Of a stretch of DNA of 64,000 nucleotides, positions 2,271 through 11,644 are shown piece after piece. Where the stretch lies: contig JAHJQN010000003.1 of the NCBI GenBank assembly GCA_018819225.1, positions 64,001-128,000 of the forward strand. The letters are read 5' to 3'. Below the pieces are notes generated by a model. The model was given only the letters and a program-made list of their open reading frames with translations, was not told the origin of the DNA and did no database searches. This stretch comes from Candidatus Micrarchaeota archaeon. GTDB lineage: Archaea; Micrarchaeota; Micrarchaeia; Norongarragalinales; SBBD01. Both the position numbers and the translations under genes were made by a program. The stretch's first letter is position 1. Every line of letters starts with the position of its first letter.

Positions 2271-3173
2271 TTGAAAGGAATTACGTTGAAACACGGCACG
2301 CAACGATTGAAGGAAGGCTTCGCTAAAATGCAGAAAGGCGGCGTCATCATGGACGTGGTCAACGAAAAGCAGGCGAAGATCGCGGAAGAAGCCGGCGCCG
2401 TAGCGGTCATGGCCTTGCACGCCGTTCCAGCGGACATTCGTAAGGAAGGGGGAGTGGCGCGCATGGCCGATCCCCTGGTCATCGAACAAATCATGAAGGC
2501 CGTCACGATACCGGTGATGGCCAAAGCGCGCATTGGACACGTTGCGGAAGCGCAAGTGTTGCAGGAACTGGGCGTGGACATGATTGATGAAAGCGAAGTG
2601 CTGACTCCCGCCGACGAAGAGCATCACATCGACAAGAGCCAATTCACGATTCCGTTCGTATGCGGTGCCCGCGATCTCGGAGAAGCGTTGAGACGCATTG
2701 ATGAGGGGGCGGCCATGATTCGCACCAAAGGCGAGCCCGGAACCGGAAATGTCGTTGAAGCGGTTCGCCACGCCCGAAAAGTGAACCAAGAGATTGCCGA
2801 ACTCGTCAAGAATATCAATAACGCGTCCGTCCTGGAGAAAAAAGCAAACGAATATGGCGTCCCCCTATCGCTCGTGAAAAAAATCGCCCAGGAAAAGCGG
2901 TTGACCGTCGTCAATTTTGCGGCCGGAGGCATTGCCACTCCCGCCGACGCCGCGTTGATGATGCAGCTCGGAGTCGACGGCGTTTTTGTGGGCAGCGGCA
3001 TCTTCAAGAGCCAGTTCCCGGAAAAGTTTGCGAAAGCCATCGTGGAGGCCACGCGCCATTACGATGATGCGTCGGTGGTGGCGCGCGTATCCCGCGGATT
3101 GGGAACGCCCATGAAAGGAATCGAGACGTCCATGTTGAAAAAAGAAGAGCGCATGCAGGACCGAGGAATCTGA
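2271..3173 (+). CDS. pdxS: Pyridoxal 5'-phosphate synthase, lyase subunit
   Basis: [67 protein letters not shown]. Confidence 0.97.
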
Positions 3174-3187
3174 ACGGAGGAGGGCCC

Positions 3188-3829
3188 ATGGCTGAAAAAC
3201 CAAAGAAATCCTCTCGAGAACAACGATTCGAGCACTTGATGAAACGAAGTGCCGAAACGCCGGAAGGGCGTGCGAGCGGTATATGGAAACGAAATCCGTT
3301 ATTGCATAATTACACGATTCCGCACGCGTTTCTGATGAACGATCACGAGCTCGGATTGGAATCGTTTGCAAAATCGCATCCAAGATACTCAAGGTCCCAA
3401 GTGTATTATGCGCGAAGAATTATTCGGGGGAACCAACGAGTGGTTAACCGGCTCATTGGAAGCTGGAGAAACGGAAAGCACGTACTCGCAAGTGGTCCAG
3501 CCCTCATGGAATTAATTTCAGCAGCCTCTCCTGAGGAACGGACTTTGAGAAAACGGCGCGTTCCAACGGGAGTGCAAGACGTACGTGCGCTCGTCATCCA
3601 AGCGGACCGCTGGATTGAAGGGGGGCTCTGCACTCCAGAAATCGATCGGTACGCGATGCATCTTAAAACACATTTTTTGAACCATTTGAAAAGTGCTGAA
3701 CGCGTGCCTGAATATGCTCAGGTGGCACGAGCCATGCAAAAAGTATTCCAAGACGCAGATCATCTTGCGTTAGCCCATGCTCTCGTGCGAAACGTCCATT
3801 CCTATTATTCGGACCCGAATAAAACGTAA
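3188..3829 (+). CDS. Hypothetical basic protein between pdxS and pdxT
   Basis: 213-aa ORF with a GGAGG SD before ATG 3188. It fills the pdxS-pdxT gap. No motif recognised. Confidence 0.7.
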   Translation: MAEKPKKSSREQRFEHLMKRSAETPEGRASGIWKRNPLLHNYTIPHAFLMNDHELGLESFAKSHPRYSRSQVYYARRIIRGNQRVVNRLIGSWRNGKHVLASGPALMELISAASPEERTLRKRRVPTGVQDVRALVIQADRWIEGGLCTPEIDRYAMHLKTHFLNHLKSAERVPEYAQVARAMQKVFQDADHLALAHALVRNVHSYYSDPNKT

Positions 3830-3839
3830 GGCGAATGCT

Positions 3840-4418
3840 TTGAAAATCGGCGTACTCGGTTTACAGGGAGCGGTGTCGGAACACCTCGAGGTGCTTCGCA
3901 AGCTTCCGGTGGAAGCGGTCTGGGTGAAAGAGGATAAGCACCTCGCGGCCGTGGATGCGTTAATCCTTCCCGGAGGCGAAAGCACCACCATTTCAACATT
4001 GCTGGAAAAAAACCGTTTATTTGAACCGTTGAAAGAACGCGCAAGCAACGGAATGCCGATCTTCGGAACGTGTGCAGGACTCGTATTGTTGGCGAAGGAT
4101 GCAGGACGACAACAGCAACAGACCGGCCAAAAATTATTGGAGCTCATGGATATGCGCGTGAACCGAAACGCGTTTGGCCGACAAAAAGACAGCATGGAAG
4201 CCCCGATAACCATTCAAGGCATTGCAGGAAAATTCCCGGCCGTGTTCATCCGAGCGCCCGTTATTGAAAAAGTGAATGGAACGTGTCACATCATTGCGCG
4301 TCTCGATCAACACATCGTCGCTGCGGAACAAGAACCATTCCTGGCCACGAGCTTTCATCCGGAGCTCTCCGGCGATTCGCGCGTACACGAATATTTCATT
4401 CGGAAAATCAAGCGCTAG
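3840..4418 (+). CDS. pdxT: Pyridoxal 5'-phosphate synthase, glutaminase subunit
   Basis: KIGVLGLQGAVSEH, ILPGGESTT, FGTCAG, RNAFGRQ, FIRAP, SFHPEL. TTG start at 3840 preceded by AGGCGA. Confidence 0.96.
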   Translation: MKIGVLGLQGAVSEHLEVLRKLPVEAVWVKEDKHLAAVDALILPGGESTTISTLLEKNRLFEPLKERASNGMPIFGTCAGLVLLAKDAGRQQQQTGQKLLELMDMRVNRNAFGRQKDSMEAPITIQGIAGKFPAVFIRAPVIEKVNGTCHIIARLDQHIVAAEQEPFLATSFHPELSGDSRVHEYFIRKIKR

Positions 4419-4918
4419 TAAATCGACACTTTCTTCACGCCCTTGATTTGCGGAAAGCGATTCAGCAAAGCACCCGGAATCTTGCGTTCGGTAATGATGA
4501 GGAGAGTCGGGTTCTCAAATAGCTCGGGATCCTTCGCGTACACTTGACGAATCCGAATCCGTTTTTCCGCCAACAGTTGAGTGGCCGCAGCCACGATACC
4601 GCCTCTCCGCGCATCCGCTTCAATTTCAACGACCCCGAAACCCAGCATCGGGGCCACCTCCCGCAATAACGATCCCGCCGGTTGAATATGGGAGAAAATT
4701 TTGTTTAGATACGGATCGGAACGAATCCCTGCAATGGTTCGACGGACCATCCGGCGGTCGACGCCCGCGCTTTGCGCTAACGAGGCATCCTTGACTTCCA
4801 CATCCCCGCAACAAATTTTTCCGTCCTCGCGAATCCGGAGCCCCAACTCGACGAGCTTTCGCGCCACCGATTTCTGAGCCGGCAGGCCACCAAACAATCC
4901 CGAAACCCGATTCCACAT
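4415..4918 (-). CDS. trpY: TrpY-like tryptophan-sensitive transcription regulator (N-terminal DNA-binding domain, C-terminal ACT domain)
   Basis: Starts MW at ATG 4918 and W2 is its only Trp, the known TrpY hallmark. Has GVDRR and an ACT-like C-terminus (IRQ..DP). Divergent from trpB2 across TGTACA boxes. Confidence 0.85.
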   Translation of the reverse strand: MWNRVSGLFGGLPAQKSVARKLVELGLRIREDGKICCGDVEVKDASLAQSAGVDRRMVRRTIAGIRSDPYLNKIFSHIQPAGSLLREVAPMLGFGVVEIEADARRGGIVAAATQLLAEKRIRIRQVYAKDPELFENPTLLIITERKIPGALLNRFPQIKGVKKVSIY

Positions 4919-4920
4919 AA

Positions 4921-4946
4921 TGTACAAATATGTACAGCAATGTATT
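4921..4946. promoter_or_regulatory. TRP boxes (TrpY operator): TGTACA-N4-TGTACA-N4-TGTATT
   Basis: Perfect TGTACA palindromes at 4921-4926 and 4931-4936 and a degenerate copy at 4941-4946, with a 10-bp period. This matches the known TrpY consensus TGTACA. Confidence 0.88.
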
Positions 4947-4951
4947 AAATA
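4943..4951. promoter_or_regulatory. Probable shared or overlapping TATA box for the divergent trpY and trpB2 genes
   Basis: TATTAAATA lies ~25 nt upstream of the trpY ATG (consistent with a leaderless transcript) and ~50 nt upstream of ATG 4999. It overlaps the third TRP box. Confidence 0.6.
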
Positions 4952-4998
4952 GATACGTCGAGTCGATGGAAGATACCAGTCAGCTAGAGGTGTTTCTA

Positions 4999-5028
4999 AT
5001 GAAACCAGGCGAGTTACTTTGGCGTTAA
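4999..5028 (+). other. Trp-codon-containing leader ORF (MKPGELLWR*) and candidate +1 frameshift site CTT-TGG (5017-5022)
   Basis: SD GAGGTG at 4987-4992, then ATG AAA CCA GGC GAG TTA CTT TGG CGT TAA. The +1 frame (TTT GGC GTT AAA...) is the TrpB2 frame. Confidence 0.7.
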
Positions 5029-6316
5029 AACCGTATTAACCGAGGACGAGGTCCCGAGAAACTACTACAACATATTGCCGGACCTCCCCAAACCGCTCGA
5101 TCCTCCACTGGACGGACAAACCCGCATGCCCATCACTCCCGATGCGCTCAAACCCATTTTTCCGATGGAAATAATCCGGCAAGAGGTTTCCACGCAAAAA
5201 ACGATTGCGATACCCGACGAAGTACGCGAAGCGTATTTGAAATTGGGACGGCCTACCCCCTTATACCGCGCAAAGAAATTGGAAGCGAAACTGAAAACGC
5301 CCGCAAAAATCTTCTTCAAGCGAGAGGATTTGAATCCGTGCGGCTCGCATAAGCCGAATACCGCCATCGCGCAAGCCTACTATTCCATGAAAGAAGGCGT
5401 GGACGTGCTGGCCACGGAAACCGGTGCCGGACAATGGGGAACCGCTCTCGCTTACGCGACCCAGCTTTTCGGCTTAAAATGCGACGTGTTCATGGTGCGA
5501 ACCAGCTTTGAACAAAAACCGTACCGGAAAACGCTCATGCAACTCTACGGAGCCCACGTCACCCCCTCCCCGAGCCAGCGCACAACATTCGGGCAAGAAG
5601 TGCTAAAAAAAAGTCCGGAACACCCCGGGAGTCTTGGAATCGCGATCAGCGAAGCCTTGGAAACCGTCGTCACATCTAAAAACGCGAAGTACTCGTTGGG
5701 AAGCGTGCTCAATCACGTGTTATTGCACCAAACCGTCATCGGACAAGAAACACTGATTCAACTCGCTAAAAACGATGTCGAACCGGATGTCATGATTGGC
5801 TGCGTGGGAGGCGGCAGCAACTTCGGGGGATTCGCGTTTCCGGCCATGGAACGCAAACTCAAAAAGAAAACGAATACGCGGTTTATTGCCGTAGAACCCG
5901 ATGCCGCGCCATCCATCACCAAAGGAACGTACGCTTACGACGCAGGGGACACGGCCGGCATGACGCCGTTGATGAAAATGTATACGCTGGGGAAGGAATT
6001 CATTCCATCCCCCATTCATGCCGGCGGGCTGAGATATCACGGCATGGCACCCGCCATCTCTCTGCTCGCGCAAGAAAAACTCATCGAAGCGAAAGCGTAT
6101 TCCCAGATCAAAATCTTCGATGCGGCCGCGCTGTTTGCGCAAACCGAGGGAATCGTGGCGGCACCGGAAAGCGCGCACGCGATCGCGGCGGCCATTGATG
6201 AAGCCAAAGCATGCAAACGCTCGGGAGAAAGGCAAACCATTGTCTTCAATCTCTCGGGCCACGGACTCCTTGACCTGAAAGGATACGAAGACTACTTGGA
6301 AGGAAGAATCACGTGA
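4999..6316 (+). CDS. trpB2: Tryptophan synthase beta chain type 2 (TrpB2). Needs a +1 frame change from ATG 4999; the ORF track starts it at TTG 5075.
   Basis: RPTPL, GSHKPNTA (PLP lysine), TETGAGQWG, GSLGIAISEA, GCVGGGSNF, HAGGLRYHG, FNLSGHG. The TrpB2-like N-terminal segment KTVLTEDEVPRNYYNIL lies in frame upstream of 5075 and is bounded by TGA at 5000-5002. Confidence 0.95.
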
Positions 6317-6323
6317 TGAAAAA

Positions 6324-6731
6324 ATGCCGTTAATTCCCGCTGGACAACTCAGGCCGCACGAGCGCATTGAACGAATGCGGTTAAGAAAAGTACGCGCGGA
6401 TATCGAAGCGCGAGGCGTGCTCGACTATCCGTTGCTTGTCTACGAGGAAACGCGCGTTATATTGGATGGACATCACCGCTTTCGCGCGCTTCAACTAATG
6501 GGCTGTCCGCTGATCCCCGTCCAGTTCATTAGATATGAAGGAAAGGCCGTGCAAGTCAGCAGCCAGCGCCCCGGCGTACGCGTCAGCAAAGCGCGTGTCC
6601 GTGAACGCGGTTTAACGGGCCGTTTATTCCCGCCCAAAACCACGAAACACGCATATAAGAAAAGGAGAAAACCGTTTAAATTAAATGAAAGTAGCGTCCT
6701 CGCTTTGGAGGGCGGACCCACAATATATTAA
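6324..6731 (+). CDS. ParB/Srx-fold protein, SerK/SbnI-like candidate free serine kinase
   Basis: LRPHE, ILDGHHR and C-terminal PPKTTKH motifs. Starts 7 nt after the trpB2 stop. Contains no Trp. Confidence 0.7.
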   Translation: MPLIPAGQLRPHERIERMRLRKVRADIEARGVLDYPLLVYEETRVILDGHHRFRALQLMGCPLIPVQFIRYEGKAVQVSSQRPGVRVSKARVRERGLTGRLFPPKTTKHAYKKRRKPFKLNESSVLALEGGPTIY

Positions 6732-8565: not shown

Positions 8566-8629
8566 CCAACGAGCGTTTCGAAAGCTAATACGAAAACGTA
8601 TTATAGGGTTGCTACCCTGTTCAATCCAC

Positions 8630-11600
8630 ATGCAAACCGGGCCGGTGGTAAGCGTTGGAATCCTCGCGCTTATCTTAAGCGCGCTTCCGATCTCTGCGGC
8701 AACATGGGGAGCACCCGCATGGCAGGAATACGGACTGGATGTCAGCCAAATGCAGCCATGGGATTGGGCGGCGATATCGGATGAAGCGGGAGGCGCAGTC
8801 GCTGTATGGAGCAAGTTCCTGTCGGGCACGGCCCGAGAACCCTATTTCCAACGCGTTTACCCGGATGGAACACGGTATTTCGCAAACGGAATTCTATTGG
8901 CTCCCGCTTTCAGCGACTGGAGGGCCTACGACATGGAATTAATAAAACCGGGCACGGGCGCGCGTTATTATGCGGTTTGGACGAACATCAACAGCCCAAA
9001 CGGGGGTGCAGATGATGGGCTGTGGGTACAGCGCTTCAACGGCAACACGGGCGCGTTACTTTTCGGGGACGAAGGCATCCAGGTCACCCCACTCGAACCG
9101 TACGCGATGGCGCTCGCCGGCTCGGGAACCTCGAACGCGTACATCGCATTTGTCGAAAACTCTGCAGGAAATGGTGCCTCGCCGGACCTTTATTTGGCTC
9201 AGGTAACACAAGCCGCAATCGTAGACCGATTTGAGCTCGTGAACCCCGACTTCAATTCGAATACGAACGTCTACTTGAGCATGATCAAGTCCGGAAATGG
9301 CGTCATCGTGAGCAGCGTGCAAAATAGCCAACTCATTCTCGACCGATACGAGTACAACGTGAATTTGGGAGTTTGGGAGAAGGATTGGAGTAGGTTGATC
9401 GCATCAAACGTGGTTCCAACCCAATTAACAACGGACGAAAATGGAGGTGCCGTCATCGGATTCGAGGACTTTGATGGCACCGGATGGTACATTCAAAACG
9501 TGGGCTGGGCTTGGGTCGATGCATCCGGCAACATCGCGGACTCGGAAAGCGGCACGAGCACCAACTACTTATCCGAAGCCGTGTTGAAGAACAATGCGGC
9601 CGTGGAAACCCGCGTTTCCGCTTATGCATCGCCCGCAGGATTCGGTCGTATCGAAATATTATACGATGGTCCAGGAGGGGGACAAGCGATGGACTCCTAT
9701 TCCTATCCGTGGGACAACGGCAACAATCCGGCCCCGCAAACCAAGATATCGCTGGTAACCGATGGAGTCCAACGGGGAGCGCAGAACTGGTATGGATCGT
9801 ATATGGCGTATGAGATGCGAGAGAAAAACTGCAACACCGGTTCGGGAATGAATTGGGAAACCTATATCGTCATCAAGCGAGTCGACGGCGGGGGCACGCG
9901 TTGGTCCGGACCGTTTCCAAACTACGATGAAGACCGGCTCGTGCTGTCCATTCCCAACCCCAACCAATACCGGGCAACCAATCCCCTCGCGATCAATGCG
10001 GGTCCGGAATCCGCGATCGTATTTTGGACCCAGCGAAACCCCAACCGGGTTTACGCACAAAAAGTGATTGAAGCAGCCAATGAGTACGTGTATGCCAATG
10101 CGATTCCGGGAGTGAGCGGAGGTGGGCCATACAGCGGTAACGTCGGAGAAGAAGTGGCATTGGATGGAACCGTAACAGAAGGAAATGCCGTGGCGTTTGA
10201 ATGGAGCGTTTTTTCCGGAAACGCAGCCGACTGCATCTGGAATCCAAATCCCAATGTAGAAGATCCGGGTATTACATGCAATTCCGTAGGAACGAGGGGA
10301 CTCGCGCTTCGAGCACAGAATGCGAACGGTTTGTGGAGCGGATACGCGTGCACGAGCGTCACATTTGCAGCGGGGGGCGATCCCGTTGCGGATGCCGGTC
10401 CGGATCAGGAATTACTGAGTTTGGAAACGATGGTATTGGATGGATCGGGTTCAACGGATCCGGATGGAACGATTGTTGCCTACCGATGGCGGCGAGAAAC
10501 CGGTAACCTGCCCATTGATTGTTCTTTGACGGACCCGGACGGTGAAAGCGGGTCGTTGGCGCAATTGCATTGCACGGACGATCACGATCCGGCTATCATC
10601 ATGGAATTGGAAGTCGAAGATAACGATGGAAAGCTTGCAACGGATACAATGAACGCAAAATTCTTGAATCGCCTTCCCGTAGCAGACGCTTCCGGAAATG
10701 GTCCAGGAGTCAATGACCAGGATATCAATGTTCAGGGAACCGTCATTGATGAAGATGGGATCTTAAACCCAGCAGAATGGATCAGTGATGCTGGTCAATG
10801 TTTGAAGACCGCTCCAGATACCTATTTTCCACTGCCACCATGGCAAGCAAATATGTTAGTAACGGTTTATTCTAAAATGAAGTGTTCGGCCGAAGGTTCA
10901 TTCCCCATTCGATTGACAGTAACCGATGACGATAACGGCTACGATGAAGACTCGTTTGATTTACTCATTTCGTCCAACGCGCCACCCATTGCAAACGCGT
11001 GGGGAGATTACTCGGGTGCTCCGAATACCGAGATTTCCATTTATGGAACAGCTGACGACAACTCCGCAATCAATACGATGTCATGGGCGAAAGTATTCGG
11101 ACCCGGCAACTGCGTATTCGATACCACGTTTGTGGGTCAAGGCAGTCCGACCGCGTCCCTGAACGGAACCATTACCTGCGATGCCGAAGGAAGTTACGGA
11201 ATTCAATTGAAAGTCTCGGATGGTGATGGCGCACAAGCATCGGATAATGCGTTAGTTAATATCGGATCCGCACCCTCTGCCACATTCGAAGCCGTACAAC
11301 CTGCCGTCGTATTACTGGATTGTCCGCGTCTGACCTATCAAGAAACCACTCAAATTTCCGTTCAATGTCTGGATAATGGAGTGGCGTGCGAAACGGATCA
11401 GATAGTAATAACGGGTGCGCCAGCGACGTTATCAACGCAAGATGGACACGTGTTTATTTTTGACGTGGAAACGCTGACAGATGGGGAATATCCCGTCGTG
11501 GCCGACGCGGGATTCGATGCAAGCTCCTGCACCATTCGGAAAGTCGGGAAAGAAACGGCGTCGTTCCCGGAAACGCATCCGTTCATCATCGCACTCGTTG

Positions 11601-11644
11601 TTCTTGCAAGCATGGCCGTTGTGCGCCTCAAGAAAAACAAGTGA
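8630..11644 (+). CDS. Large secreted surface protein with PKD/Ig-like repeats and a C-terminal archaeosortase-type sorting signal
   Basis: Signal peptide, a beta-rich N-terminal half (D..GGAV repeats), repeats GGPYSG / PVADAGPDQ / PVADA / PIANA, and an ending of FPETHP, a TM helix and RLKKNK. Confidence 0.8.
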   Translation: MQTGPVVSVGILALILSALPISAATWGAPAWQEYGLDVSQMQPWDWAAISDEAGGAVAVWSKFLSGTAREPYFQRVYPDGTRYFANGILLAPAFSDWRAYDMELIKPGTGARYYAVWTNINSPNGGADDGLWVQRFNGNTGALLFGDEGIQVTPLEPYAMALAGSGTSNAYIAFVENSAGNGASPDLYLAQVTQAAIVDRFELVNPDFNSNTNVYLSMIKSGNGVIVSSVQNSQLILDRYEYNVNLGVWEKDWSRLIASNVVPTQLTTDENGGAVIGFEDFDGTGWYIQNVGWAWVDASGNIADSESGTSTNYLSEAVLKNNAAVETRVSAYASPAGFGRIEILYDGPGGGQAMDSYSYPWDNGNNPAPQTKISLVTDGVQRGAQNWYGSYMAYEMREKNCNTGSGMNWETYIVIKRVDGGGTRWSGPFPNYDEDRLVLSIPNPNQYRATNPLAINAGPESAIVFWTQRNPNRVYAQKVIEAANEYVYANAIPGVSGGGPYSGNVGEEVALDGTVTEGNAVAFEWSVFSGNAADCIWNPNPNVEDPGITCNSVGTRGLALRAQNANGLWSGYACTSVTFAAGGDPVADAGPDQELLSLETMVLDGSGSTDPDGTIVAYRWRRETGNLPIDCSLTDPDGESGSLAQLHCTDDHDPAIIMELEVEDNDGKLATDTMNAKFLNRLPVADASGNGPGVNDQDINVQGTVIDEDGILNPAEWISDAGQCLKTAPDTYFPLPPWQANMLVTVYSKMKCSAEGSFPIRLTVTDDDNGYDEDSFDLLISSNAPPIANAWGDYSGAPNTEISIYGTADDNSAINTMSWAKVFGPGNCVFDTTFVGQGSPTASLNGTITCDAEGSYGIQLKVSDGDGAQASDNALVNIGSAPSATFEAVQPAVVLLDCPRLTYQETTQISVQCLDNGVACETDQIVITGAPATLSTQDGHVFIFDVETLTDGEYPVVADAGFDASSCTIRKVGKETASFPETHPFIIALVVLASMAVVRLKKNK

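Follow-up and report, generated by a model that had tools for sequence, protein, structure and literature searches.

To our knowledge, free serine kinases are so far known only from the Thermococcales and Desulfurococcales (SerK) and from staphylococci (SbnI). SbnI of Staphylococcus (PDB 5ujd, 5uje and 6nr6) belongs to the staphyloferrin B pathway, where it makes O-phospho-L-serine (OPS) for SbnA, an adjacent pyridoxal phosphate (PLP) enzyme of the CysK family, and its product goes into a siderophore precursor. TrpB2 is a puzzle among PLP enzymes, with its tight binding of indole and its preference for O-phosphoserine; we know of no prior demonstration of the source of its OPS or of its purpose. 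A dependence of TrpB2 enzymes on OPS is reported (Busch 2014, cited in PMC11917138). SerK (TK0378) of Thermococcus kodakarensis is an ADP-dependent free L-serine kinase that feeds CysK (PMC5120207), and clear SerK homologues have been noted only in four genera, from Thermococcales and Desulfurococcales (Makino 2016, PMC5120207). The logic by which a serine kinase supplies OPS to a fold-type-II PLP enzyme is therefore already known, from SerK-CysK and SbnI-SbnA. Here we describe a gene pair from a 64,000-nucleotide stretch of a Candidatus Micrarchaeota genome (assembly GCA_018819225.1, contig JAHJQN010000003.1, positions 64,001 to 128,000; called the window below), in which trpB2 (5003..6316, + strand) is followed by a gene (6324..6731, +) for a 135-aa ParB/Srx-fold protein, here called mini-SerK, that is a predicted free L-serine kinase. 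Our literature search found no paper linking TrpB2 to a serine kinase or ParB-like gene, nor anything relevant on Micrarchaeota together with indole.

The mini-SerK protein carries the motifs RPHE (residues 10-13), DGHHR (48-52) and PKTTKH (104-109), and its ATG at 6324 follows the trpB2 stop (TGA, 6314-6316) after exactly 7 nt, with a Shine-Dalgarno (SD)-like GTGAT overlapping that stop. The reading frame, motifs and spacing are as an earlier note on this DNA, made from the sequence alone, had described them. Its top NCBIfam matches are SbnI (E 6e-12) and SerK (E 5e-10). We found 43 homologues of 119-168 aa, and aligned 21 diverse members for motif conservation and for a family profile; H12, E13, ILDGHHR (46-52), Y71 and LFPPKT(T/S)xH (101-109) are invariant among them. 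The family profile matches SerK (5x0b) with E 1e-23, and the match has two segments, in which positions 7-102 of the profile align with SerK 17-116 and positions 91-132 with SerK 200-241. ILDGHHR is thereby matched to IVDGHHR of SerK, the DGHHR part being identical, and LFPPKTTxH falls on SPKTTRH. E13 corresponds in the alignment to SerK E30, which is substituted in PDB 5x0e (E30A) and 5x0j (E30Q), and also to the Glu of the SbnI HE motif, which agrees with the catalytic Glu that the earlier note had placed there.

Shared between SerK and mini-SerK are thus the ParB/Srx core, the PHE glutamate, DGHHR, DY and the C-terminal PKTTRH segment, and by alignment mini-SerK is a SerK from which an internal insert of ~85 residues is missing and in which the last ~40 SerK residues are kept. 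SerK has 242 aa and CysK as its partner; like the proposed mini-SerK, it is a kinase whose partner is a fold-type-II PLP enzyme that consumes OPS, but mini-SerK has 135 aa, TrpB2 as its partner, and relatives in many bacterial and archaeal phyla. SbnI shares the HE glutamate and DG(V/H)HR with mini-SerK, and it follows the logic proposed here in making OPS for the neighboring enzyme. It differs in its length of 254 aa, in having a C-terminal domain and a regulatory (heme, DNA) role, and in its product, that proposed for the mini-SerK pathway being directed to tryptophan; just residues ~3-88 of SbnI align with mini-SerK.

An AlphaFold2 model of mini-SerK forms one compact domain (pLDDT 90, pTM 0.83). 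Foldseek comparison with PDB placed SbnI 6nr6 first (E 3e-8) and gave the SerK structures 5x0b-5x0k a query-normalized TM score (TMq) of 0.78-0.80 across the gap, with ParB and Noc (E at least 5.6e-4, TMq ~0.45) and sulfiredoxin well behind. The modeled overall fold is thus nearest SerK/SbnI rather than ParB, Noc or Srx, and overlay on SerK and SbnI, which had been suggested as a check, favors the serine kinase assignment. The description of mini-SerK as a minimal single-domain serine kinase holds for its SerK-like core and fold; the protein is nevertheless more than the N-terminal ParB/Srx domain, since the PKTTxH segment is kept.

The family is large. At E <= 0.001 it comprises 4,938 clusters at 50% identity, 1,719 of them with E <= 1e-10, and cluster lengths are mostly 112-190 aa; among GTDB species genomes we counted at least 567 loci. 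A family-profile search of the source genome found a single copy.

We surveyed the neighborhood of the mini-kinase gene at 80 loci from species genomes and four from assemblies that were fetched, 82 loci being counted. TrpB2 is the direct neighbor in 18 of the 82, where it is 52-72% identical to the window's TrpB2 and lies upstream (14 loci) or downstream (four). These loci are from Bacillota, Caldisericota, Ignavibacteriota, Saccharimonadota, Thermoproteota, Bathyarchaeota and Micrarchaeota, and in most of the pairs the genes overlap at stop and start or are separated by spacers of at most 20 nt. Adjacency in 18/82 loci, in at least seven phyla and in both gene orders takes the pairing far beyond chance, and the linkage to trpB2 that had been postulated from the window alone is conserved in bacteria and archaea.

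A cysteine synthase of the CysK/CysM type is the direct neighbor in 20 of the 82 loci, one of these being a natural fusion. This partner has ~295 aa in Caldisericota, CPR bacteria, Micrarchaeota and Bathyarchaeia, and ~400 aa, with an N-terminal extension, in Desulfurococcales and Pyrodictiaceae including Hyperthermus butylicus; the ~400-aa Desulfurococcales form is OPS-sulfhydrylase-like. The PALP-family neighbor in Hyperthermus had been considered as a possible trpB2 and was rejected, being CysK/M-like with an N-terminal extension of ~100 aa. TrmY and/or PCMT genes are direct neighbors in 11 loci, and the remaining 33 are without a recurring direct neighbor; no further recurring theme was found among the neighbors in these 33.

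Natural fusions of mini-SerK with CysK/M were found twice (L035, P0051). In several proteins of 399-432 aa (L007, at 5170-6369; P0088; P0121) the mini-kinase domain follows a GalU-like nucleotidyltransferase as a C-terminal fusion, which suggests a nucleotide-activated phospho-product in some lineages. Further fusions join it to an NAD-binding oxidoreductase domain (P0124) and to a SufS-like cysteine desulfurase (P0157, 519 aa). Apart from these, P0045-P0050 are large proteins (333-649 aa) with two mini-kinase-like stretches; Pfam gave no match in P0045, P0046, P0047, P0049 and P0050.

On a quick tree of the mini-kinases, 18 of the 19 TrpB2-linked members fall within one subtree of 43 rows, and the Cys-linked members lie elsewhere. 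At least three partner switches can be counted, an example being two Bathyarchaeial sisters that differ in the kind of partner. Because CysK/CysM partners are as frequent as TrpB2, the family looks, from gene context, like a general supplier of O-phosphoserine rather than a TrpB2-specific factor.

Within the order to which the organism belongs, 61 genomes were compared; these are related, and their counts describe a distribution without amounting to a statistical test. Both trpB2 and the mini-kinase are present in 12 genomes and both are lacking in 43, while trpB2 occurs alone in two (one of them just 70% complete) and the mini-kinase alone in four, a distribution in line with the co-occurrence that had been anticipated. 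The mini-kinase gene directly follows trpB2 in 9 of the 14 trpB2 loci of the order, and in all four kinase-only genomes cysK/M is directly downstream of it. The nearest relative found (L045) is syntenic and is labelled Micrarchaeota.

The source genome is archaeal, with 1.37 Mb in eight contigs at 90% completeness, and absences are read here as "not found" only. Profile searches of the whole of it did not find TrpA (PF00290), IGPS/TrpC (PF00218), anthranilate synthase/TrpE (PF00425), CysE or SepRS. Nor was SerC found, both matches to PF00266 (class V aminotransferase) in the genome being SufS-type. What the earlier note had reported for the window, that it holds neither trpA nor other trp genes, extends for trpA, trpC and trpE to the genome, and the genome check that it recommended turned out in its favor for these three genes and for serC. 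A weak PF00591 match (47.5 bits, in a 560-aa frame) was considered as TrpD and set aside as more like a nucleoside or AMP phosphorylase. SHMT is present, and there is one CysK-like gene, unlinked to the pair and beside a SufS-like gene (C1:38186-41225). For the window's TrpB2 no TrpA was thus found, and a kinase-like protein is its dedicated partner; published TrpB2 work, by comparison, left the OPS source and the physiological role open.

The identity of the upstream gene is clear. It scores 696.4 bits against NF009057 (cut-off 366) and 659.9 against TIGR01415 (cut-off 518.85), matches Pfam PALP, and has the PLP lysine in G114-S115-H116-K117, a GSHK motif invariant in the TrpB2 alignment. The closest solved structures are the Sulfolobus enzymes 6hul, 4qys and 6hte, at 420-510 bits.

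Its start region is unusual. Two stop codons, TAA TGA at 4997-5002, close the TrpB2 frame, which then stays open for 437 codons to the stop at 6314-6316 and contains no ATG, GTG or TTG until TTG 5075; the stretch before that codon (5003-5074) encodes the conserved TrpB2 N-terminus. ATG 4999, at which the stretch described in the earlier note begins, is ruled out as an in-frame start by the reading frame: it lies outside the TrpB2 frame, one base 5′ of it, and reads MKPGELLWR-stop (4999..5028, +). Upstream of this ATG are an SD-like GAGGTG (4987..4992, +; 6 nt 5′ of it, read from the sequence) and a TATA-like element, TTAAATA (4945..4951, +; ~48 nt 5′ of it, picked out by eye). The short frame contains the heptamer CTT TGG C (5017-5023). 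The same layout is found in L086, L088, L091 and L092, which belong to two families of the order: a start codon (ATG or TTG) lies one base 5′ of the TrpB2 frame and is followed, after 4-6 codons, by CTT TGG C. In four of the five genomes with this offset layout the start codon overlaps a TGA that closes the TrpB2 frame. An assembly indel can be ruled out as the cause, because the assemblies of four relatives show the identical layout, which is therefore a conserved feature and not damage. Six other relatives have ordinary in-frame trpB2 starts, and L091 and L092 have an in-frame GTG further down trpB2, where the window has GTT. The arrangement looks like a +1 slip at CTT TGG C that would join the short frame to the TrpB2 frame at a hungry Trp codon. 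The +1-slip sites of Ty1 (CUU-AGG-C) and prfB (CUU-UGA-C) are similar in shape.

Divergent from trpB2 is an open reading frame (ORF) at 4415-4918 (- strand) that matches NCBIfam NF053754, TrpY_fam, over its full length with 193.7 bits (cut-off 180); Pfam gave no match for it. Its likely start is the ATG at 4916-4918, the mechanical ORF extending to a TTG at 4927. This trpY-family transcription regulator gene is syntenic, divergent and upstream of the pair in seven other loci (L086, L087, L088, L091, L045, L034 and L039), including one in a Thermoproteota metagenome-assembled genome (isolate Kor1) with the order trpY, mini-kinase, trpB2. Between trpY and trpB2, a pattern search located two perfect TGTACA palindromes 10 bp apart (4921..4936), a TRP-box-like operator. 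The arrangement TGTACA-N4-TGTACA is found a single time in the window (0.01 expected), and a search of all 1.37 Mb of the genome, with one mismatch allowed, gave no second copy; GTACA/TGTACA repeats are present at the equivalent position in L086, L087 and L088. TGTACA is reported as the consensus of the TrpY TRP box (Xie & Reeve 2005; Karr 2008).

TrpY is described as binding TRP boxes between divergent promoters and repressing in the presence of Trp (PMC6737238). The TrpY homologue of T. kodakarensis does not regulate trp genes (PMC6737238), so function varies in the TrpY family. The locus resembles the TrpY/TRP-box system of Methanothermobacter thermautotrophicus in having a TrpY-family gene divergent from the regulated unit and TGTACA boxes in the shared intergenic region; unlike there, the regulated unit is trpB2 with mini-SerK, in an archaeon without a trp operon, and the control is predicted. 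Upstream of bacterial pairs lie T-box leaders: two pass the Rfam gathering score, four fall short of it but have E <= 1e-12, and in the three alignments inspected (L033, L021, L024) the specifier is GAA-UGG-A (Trp). From these sequence features, the trpB2/mini-SerK pair is predicted to be under tryptophan control, by TrpY and TGTACA boxes here and by T-boxes in bacteria. A group II intron fragment and a Moco riboswitch also occur near bacterial trpB2-kinase loci (L050:4362-4529 and L043:1177-1298, respectively) and are unrelated to the pair.

In the pathway that we propose, mini-SerK would phosphorylate L-serine to OPS. If the SerK mechanism carries over, E13 would take the proton from the serine hydroxyl, which would then attack the terminal phosphate of a nucleotide; the DGHHR box would hold this nucleotide, and PKTTxH would complete the site. 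The co-translated TrpB2 would then condense OPS and indole to tryptophan. Since no TrpA, TrpC or TrpE was found, indole would have to come from outside and be imported into the cell; serine, on the simplest reading of the gene content, would come from glycine or uptake. The pair would be the organism's only evident route to tryptophan apart from uptake, and its expression would be tied to tryptophan supply by a TrpY repressor at the TGTACA boxes and by a Trp codon in the frameshift-type leader. Mini-SerK would likewise be the only evident source of OPS, consumed by TrpB2 and possibly by CysK; because neither CysE nor SerC was found, mini-SerK probably also feeds the unlinked CysK-like enzyme.

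We infer the kinase activity, a nucleotide as phosphate donor, the use of OPS by the window's TrpB2 and the outside source of indole. On the evidence of sequence, structural model and analogy with the described kinases, it is likely that mini-SerK is a serine kinase giving O-phosphoserine to TrpB2 for indole salvage. For the fuller picture the balance tips only slightly in favor: that a pair induced by tryptophan starvation is this archaeon's only means of tryptophan synthesis, joining the smallest known free amino-acid kinase, a SerK core that has lost its insert, to TrpB2 and drawing on indole from a host or the environment, and that the family is a widespread and so far unrecognised OPS supplier for TrpB2 and CysK/M enzymes in bacteria and archaea. 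Four features distinguish this locus from the known logic: a host in which no trp pathway was found, predicted control through TrpY and TRP boxes, a trpB2 start of frameshift type and, within the order, sister loci where the kinase is linked to cysK.

Several observations weigh against the assignment of mini-SerK as a serine kinase serving TrpB2. Its NCBIfam scores are far under the equivalog cut-offs (38.9 vs 380 for SerK, 45.4 vs 350 for SbnI), SerK residues ~117-199, which make up most of the SerK C-terminal domain, are without a counterpart, and at 135 aa it does not have the two-domain architecture of the ~240-255-aa SerK/SbnI proteins. The low scores and the missing insert lead us to treat it as a new short variant and not as an equivalog. 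On the side of its partner, trpB2 is not an intact ORF with an in-frame start codon. The genome, just 90% complete, also encodes a SerB-like phosphatase (147.8 bits) and one 2-hydroxyacid dehydrogenase, closest to glyoxylate reductase, so that a futile cycle or another source of OPS is possible. The window's mini-SerK is on a long branch of the quick tree, and its closest sequence relatives (49-52% identity, from Fraserbacteria and Bipolaricaulota) lie between TrmY and PCMT genes, in a block composed of TrkA, TrkH, TrmY, the mini-kinase, PCMT and an aminotransferase-like gene. No PLP beta-replacement enzyme is beside the mini-kinase in these bacteria (L001, L003, L012, L016, L019, L044, L051 and others), and more widely about 40% of the loci have no PLP-enzyme neighbor.

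Mini-SerK might instead be a non-catalytic, nucleotide-binding regulatory or scaffold subunit, a ParB-fold NTP switch that tunes fold-type-II PLP enzymes (TrpB2, CysK/M). As an NTP-binding switch the ParB fold is versatile, one survey reporting a SerK-like protein that binds CTP (PMC12704722); the partners are always of one enzyme fold, fusions with them exist, and the internal insert of SerK is missing. A mere binder, however, would need none of what the 21 aligned members hold invariant, namely the SerK catalytic base and all the shared SerK motifs, and the precedents for a ParB/Srx fold with a PLP partner, SerK-CysK and SbnI-SbnA, are kinases. We consider the NTP switch unlikely. Still less probable is a kinase of some other hydroxyl substrate (threonine, homoserine, or a sugar or alcohol that is later nucleotidyl-activated), the TrpB2 link then reflecting other beta-substitution chemistry. 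The recurrent GalU-like fusions (L007, P0088, P0121) and the fusion to an NAD-binding oxidoreductase (P0124) would fit such a substrate, but where the family is linked to TrpB2 or CysK/M, its partner is an enzyme for which OPS is the known activated substrate, and the control by T-box UGG specifiers and TrpY is specific for Trp.

The fold itself could also point away from metabolism, to a ParB-like DNA-binding protein or nuclease, or to a sulfiredoxin-like repair enzyme, whose position beside trpB2 would be metabolically meaningless. The sole Pfam match of mini-SerK is indeed to ParB_N (E 0.0048), nuclease activity was at one time reported for the Pyrococcus homologue PF0380 (PMC5120207), and PCMT, a protein-repair enzyme, is the neighbor in the 11 loci noted above. 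That match, at 17.3 bits, is under the cut-off of 26.3, and mini-SerK departs from canonical ParB in being a single domain without helix-turn-helix (HTH) or dimerisation domain. Sulfiredoxin profiles match marginally (E 0.08-0.3), and where sulfiredoxin has the Cys of GCHR all members have DGHHR; a sulfiredoxin or PCMT-type repair role was rejected for want of the catalytic Cys. The adjacency of TrpB2 or CysK/M in 38 of the 82 loci, together with the co-occurrence, is incompatible with chance. A DNA-binding, nuclease or repair protein is thus very improbable, and a serine kinase supplying OPS to TrpB2 stays the preferred reading.

Other genes of the window were noted. The PLP synthase genes pdxS (2271-3173) and pdxT (about 3840-4418) are just upstream of trpY-trpB2, with a 213-aa ORF (3188-3829) between them that has no Pfam match. 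PLP is the TrpB2 cofactor, but this neighborhood may be due to chance. The gene next after mini-SerK is aIF5B according to the Pfam scan of the window, and a 1011-aa ORF at 8609-11644 with PKD / K319L-like domains is probably, from these domains, a surface protein.

A dedicated, co-regulated kinase beside TrpB2 would give a concrete, testable pathway, in which serine and NTP would yield OPS, and OPS and indole would yield Trp. If true, this would answer what TrpB2 does in the cell and where its OPS comes from, would widen the range of free serine kinases to thousands of clusters of one family spread over many phyla, and would define their minimal catalytic core. Biocatalysis might also profit from coupling TrpB-type enzymes to an OPS generator of 135 aa. 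For archaea with small genomes, indole may then be an exchanged metabolite.

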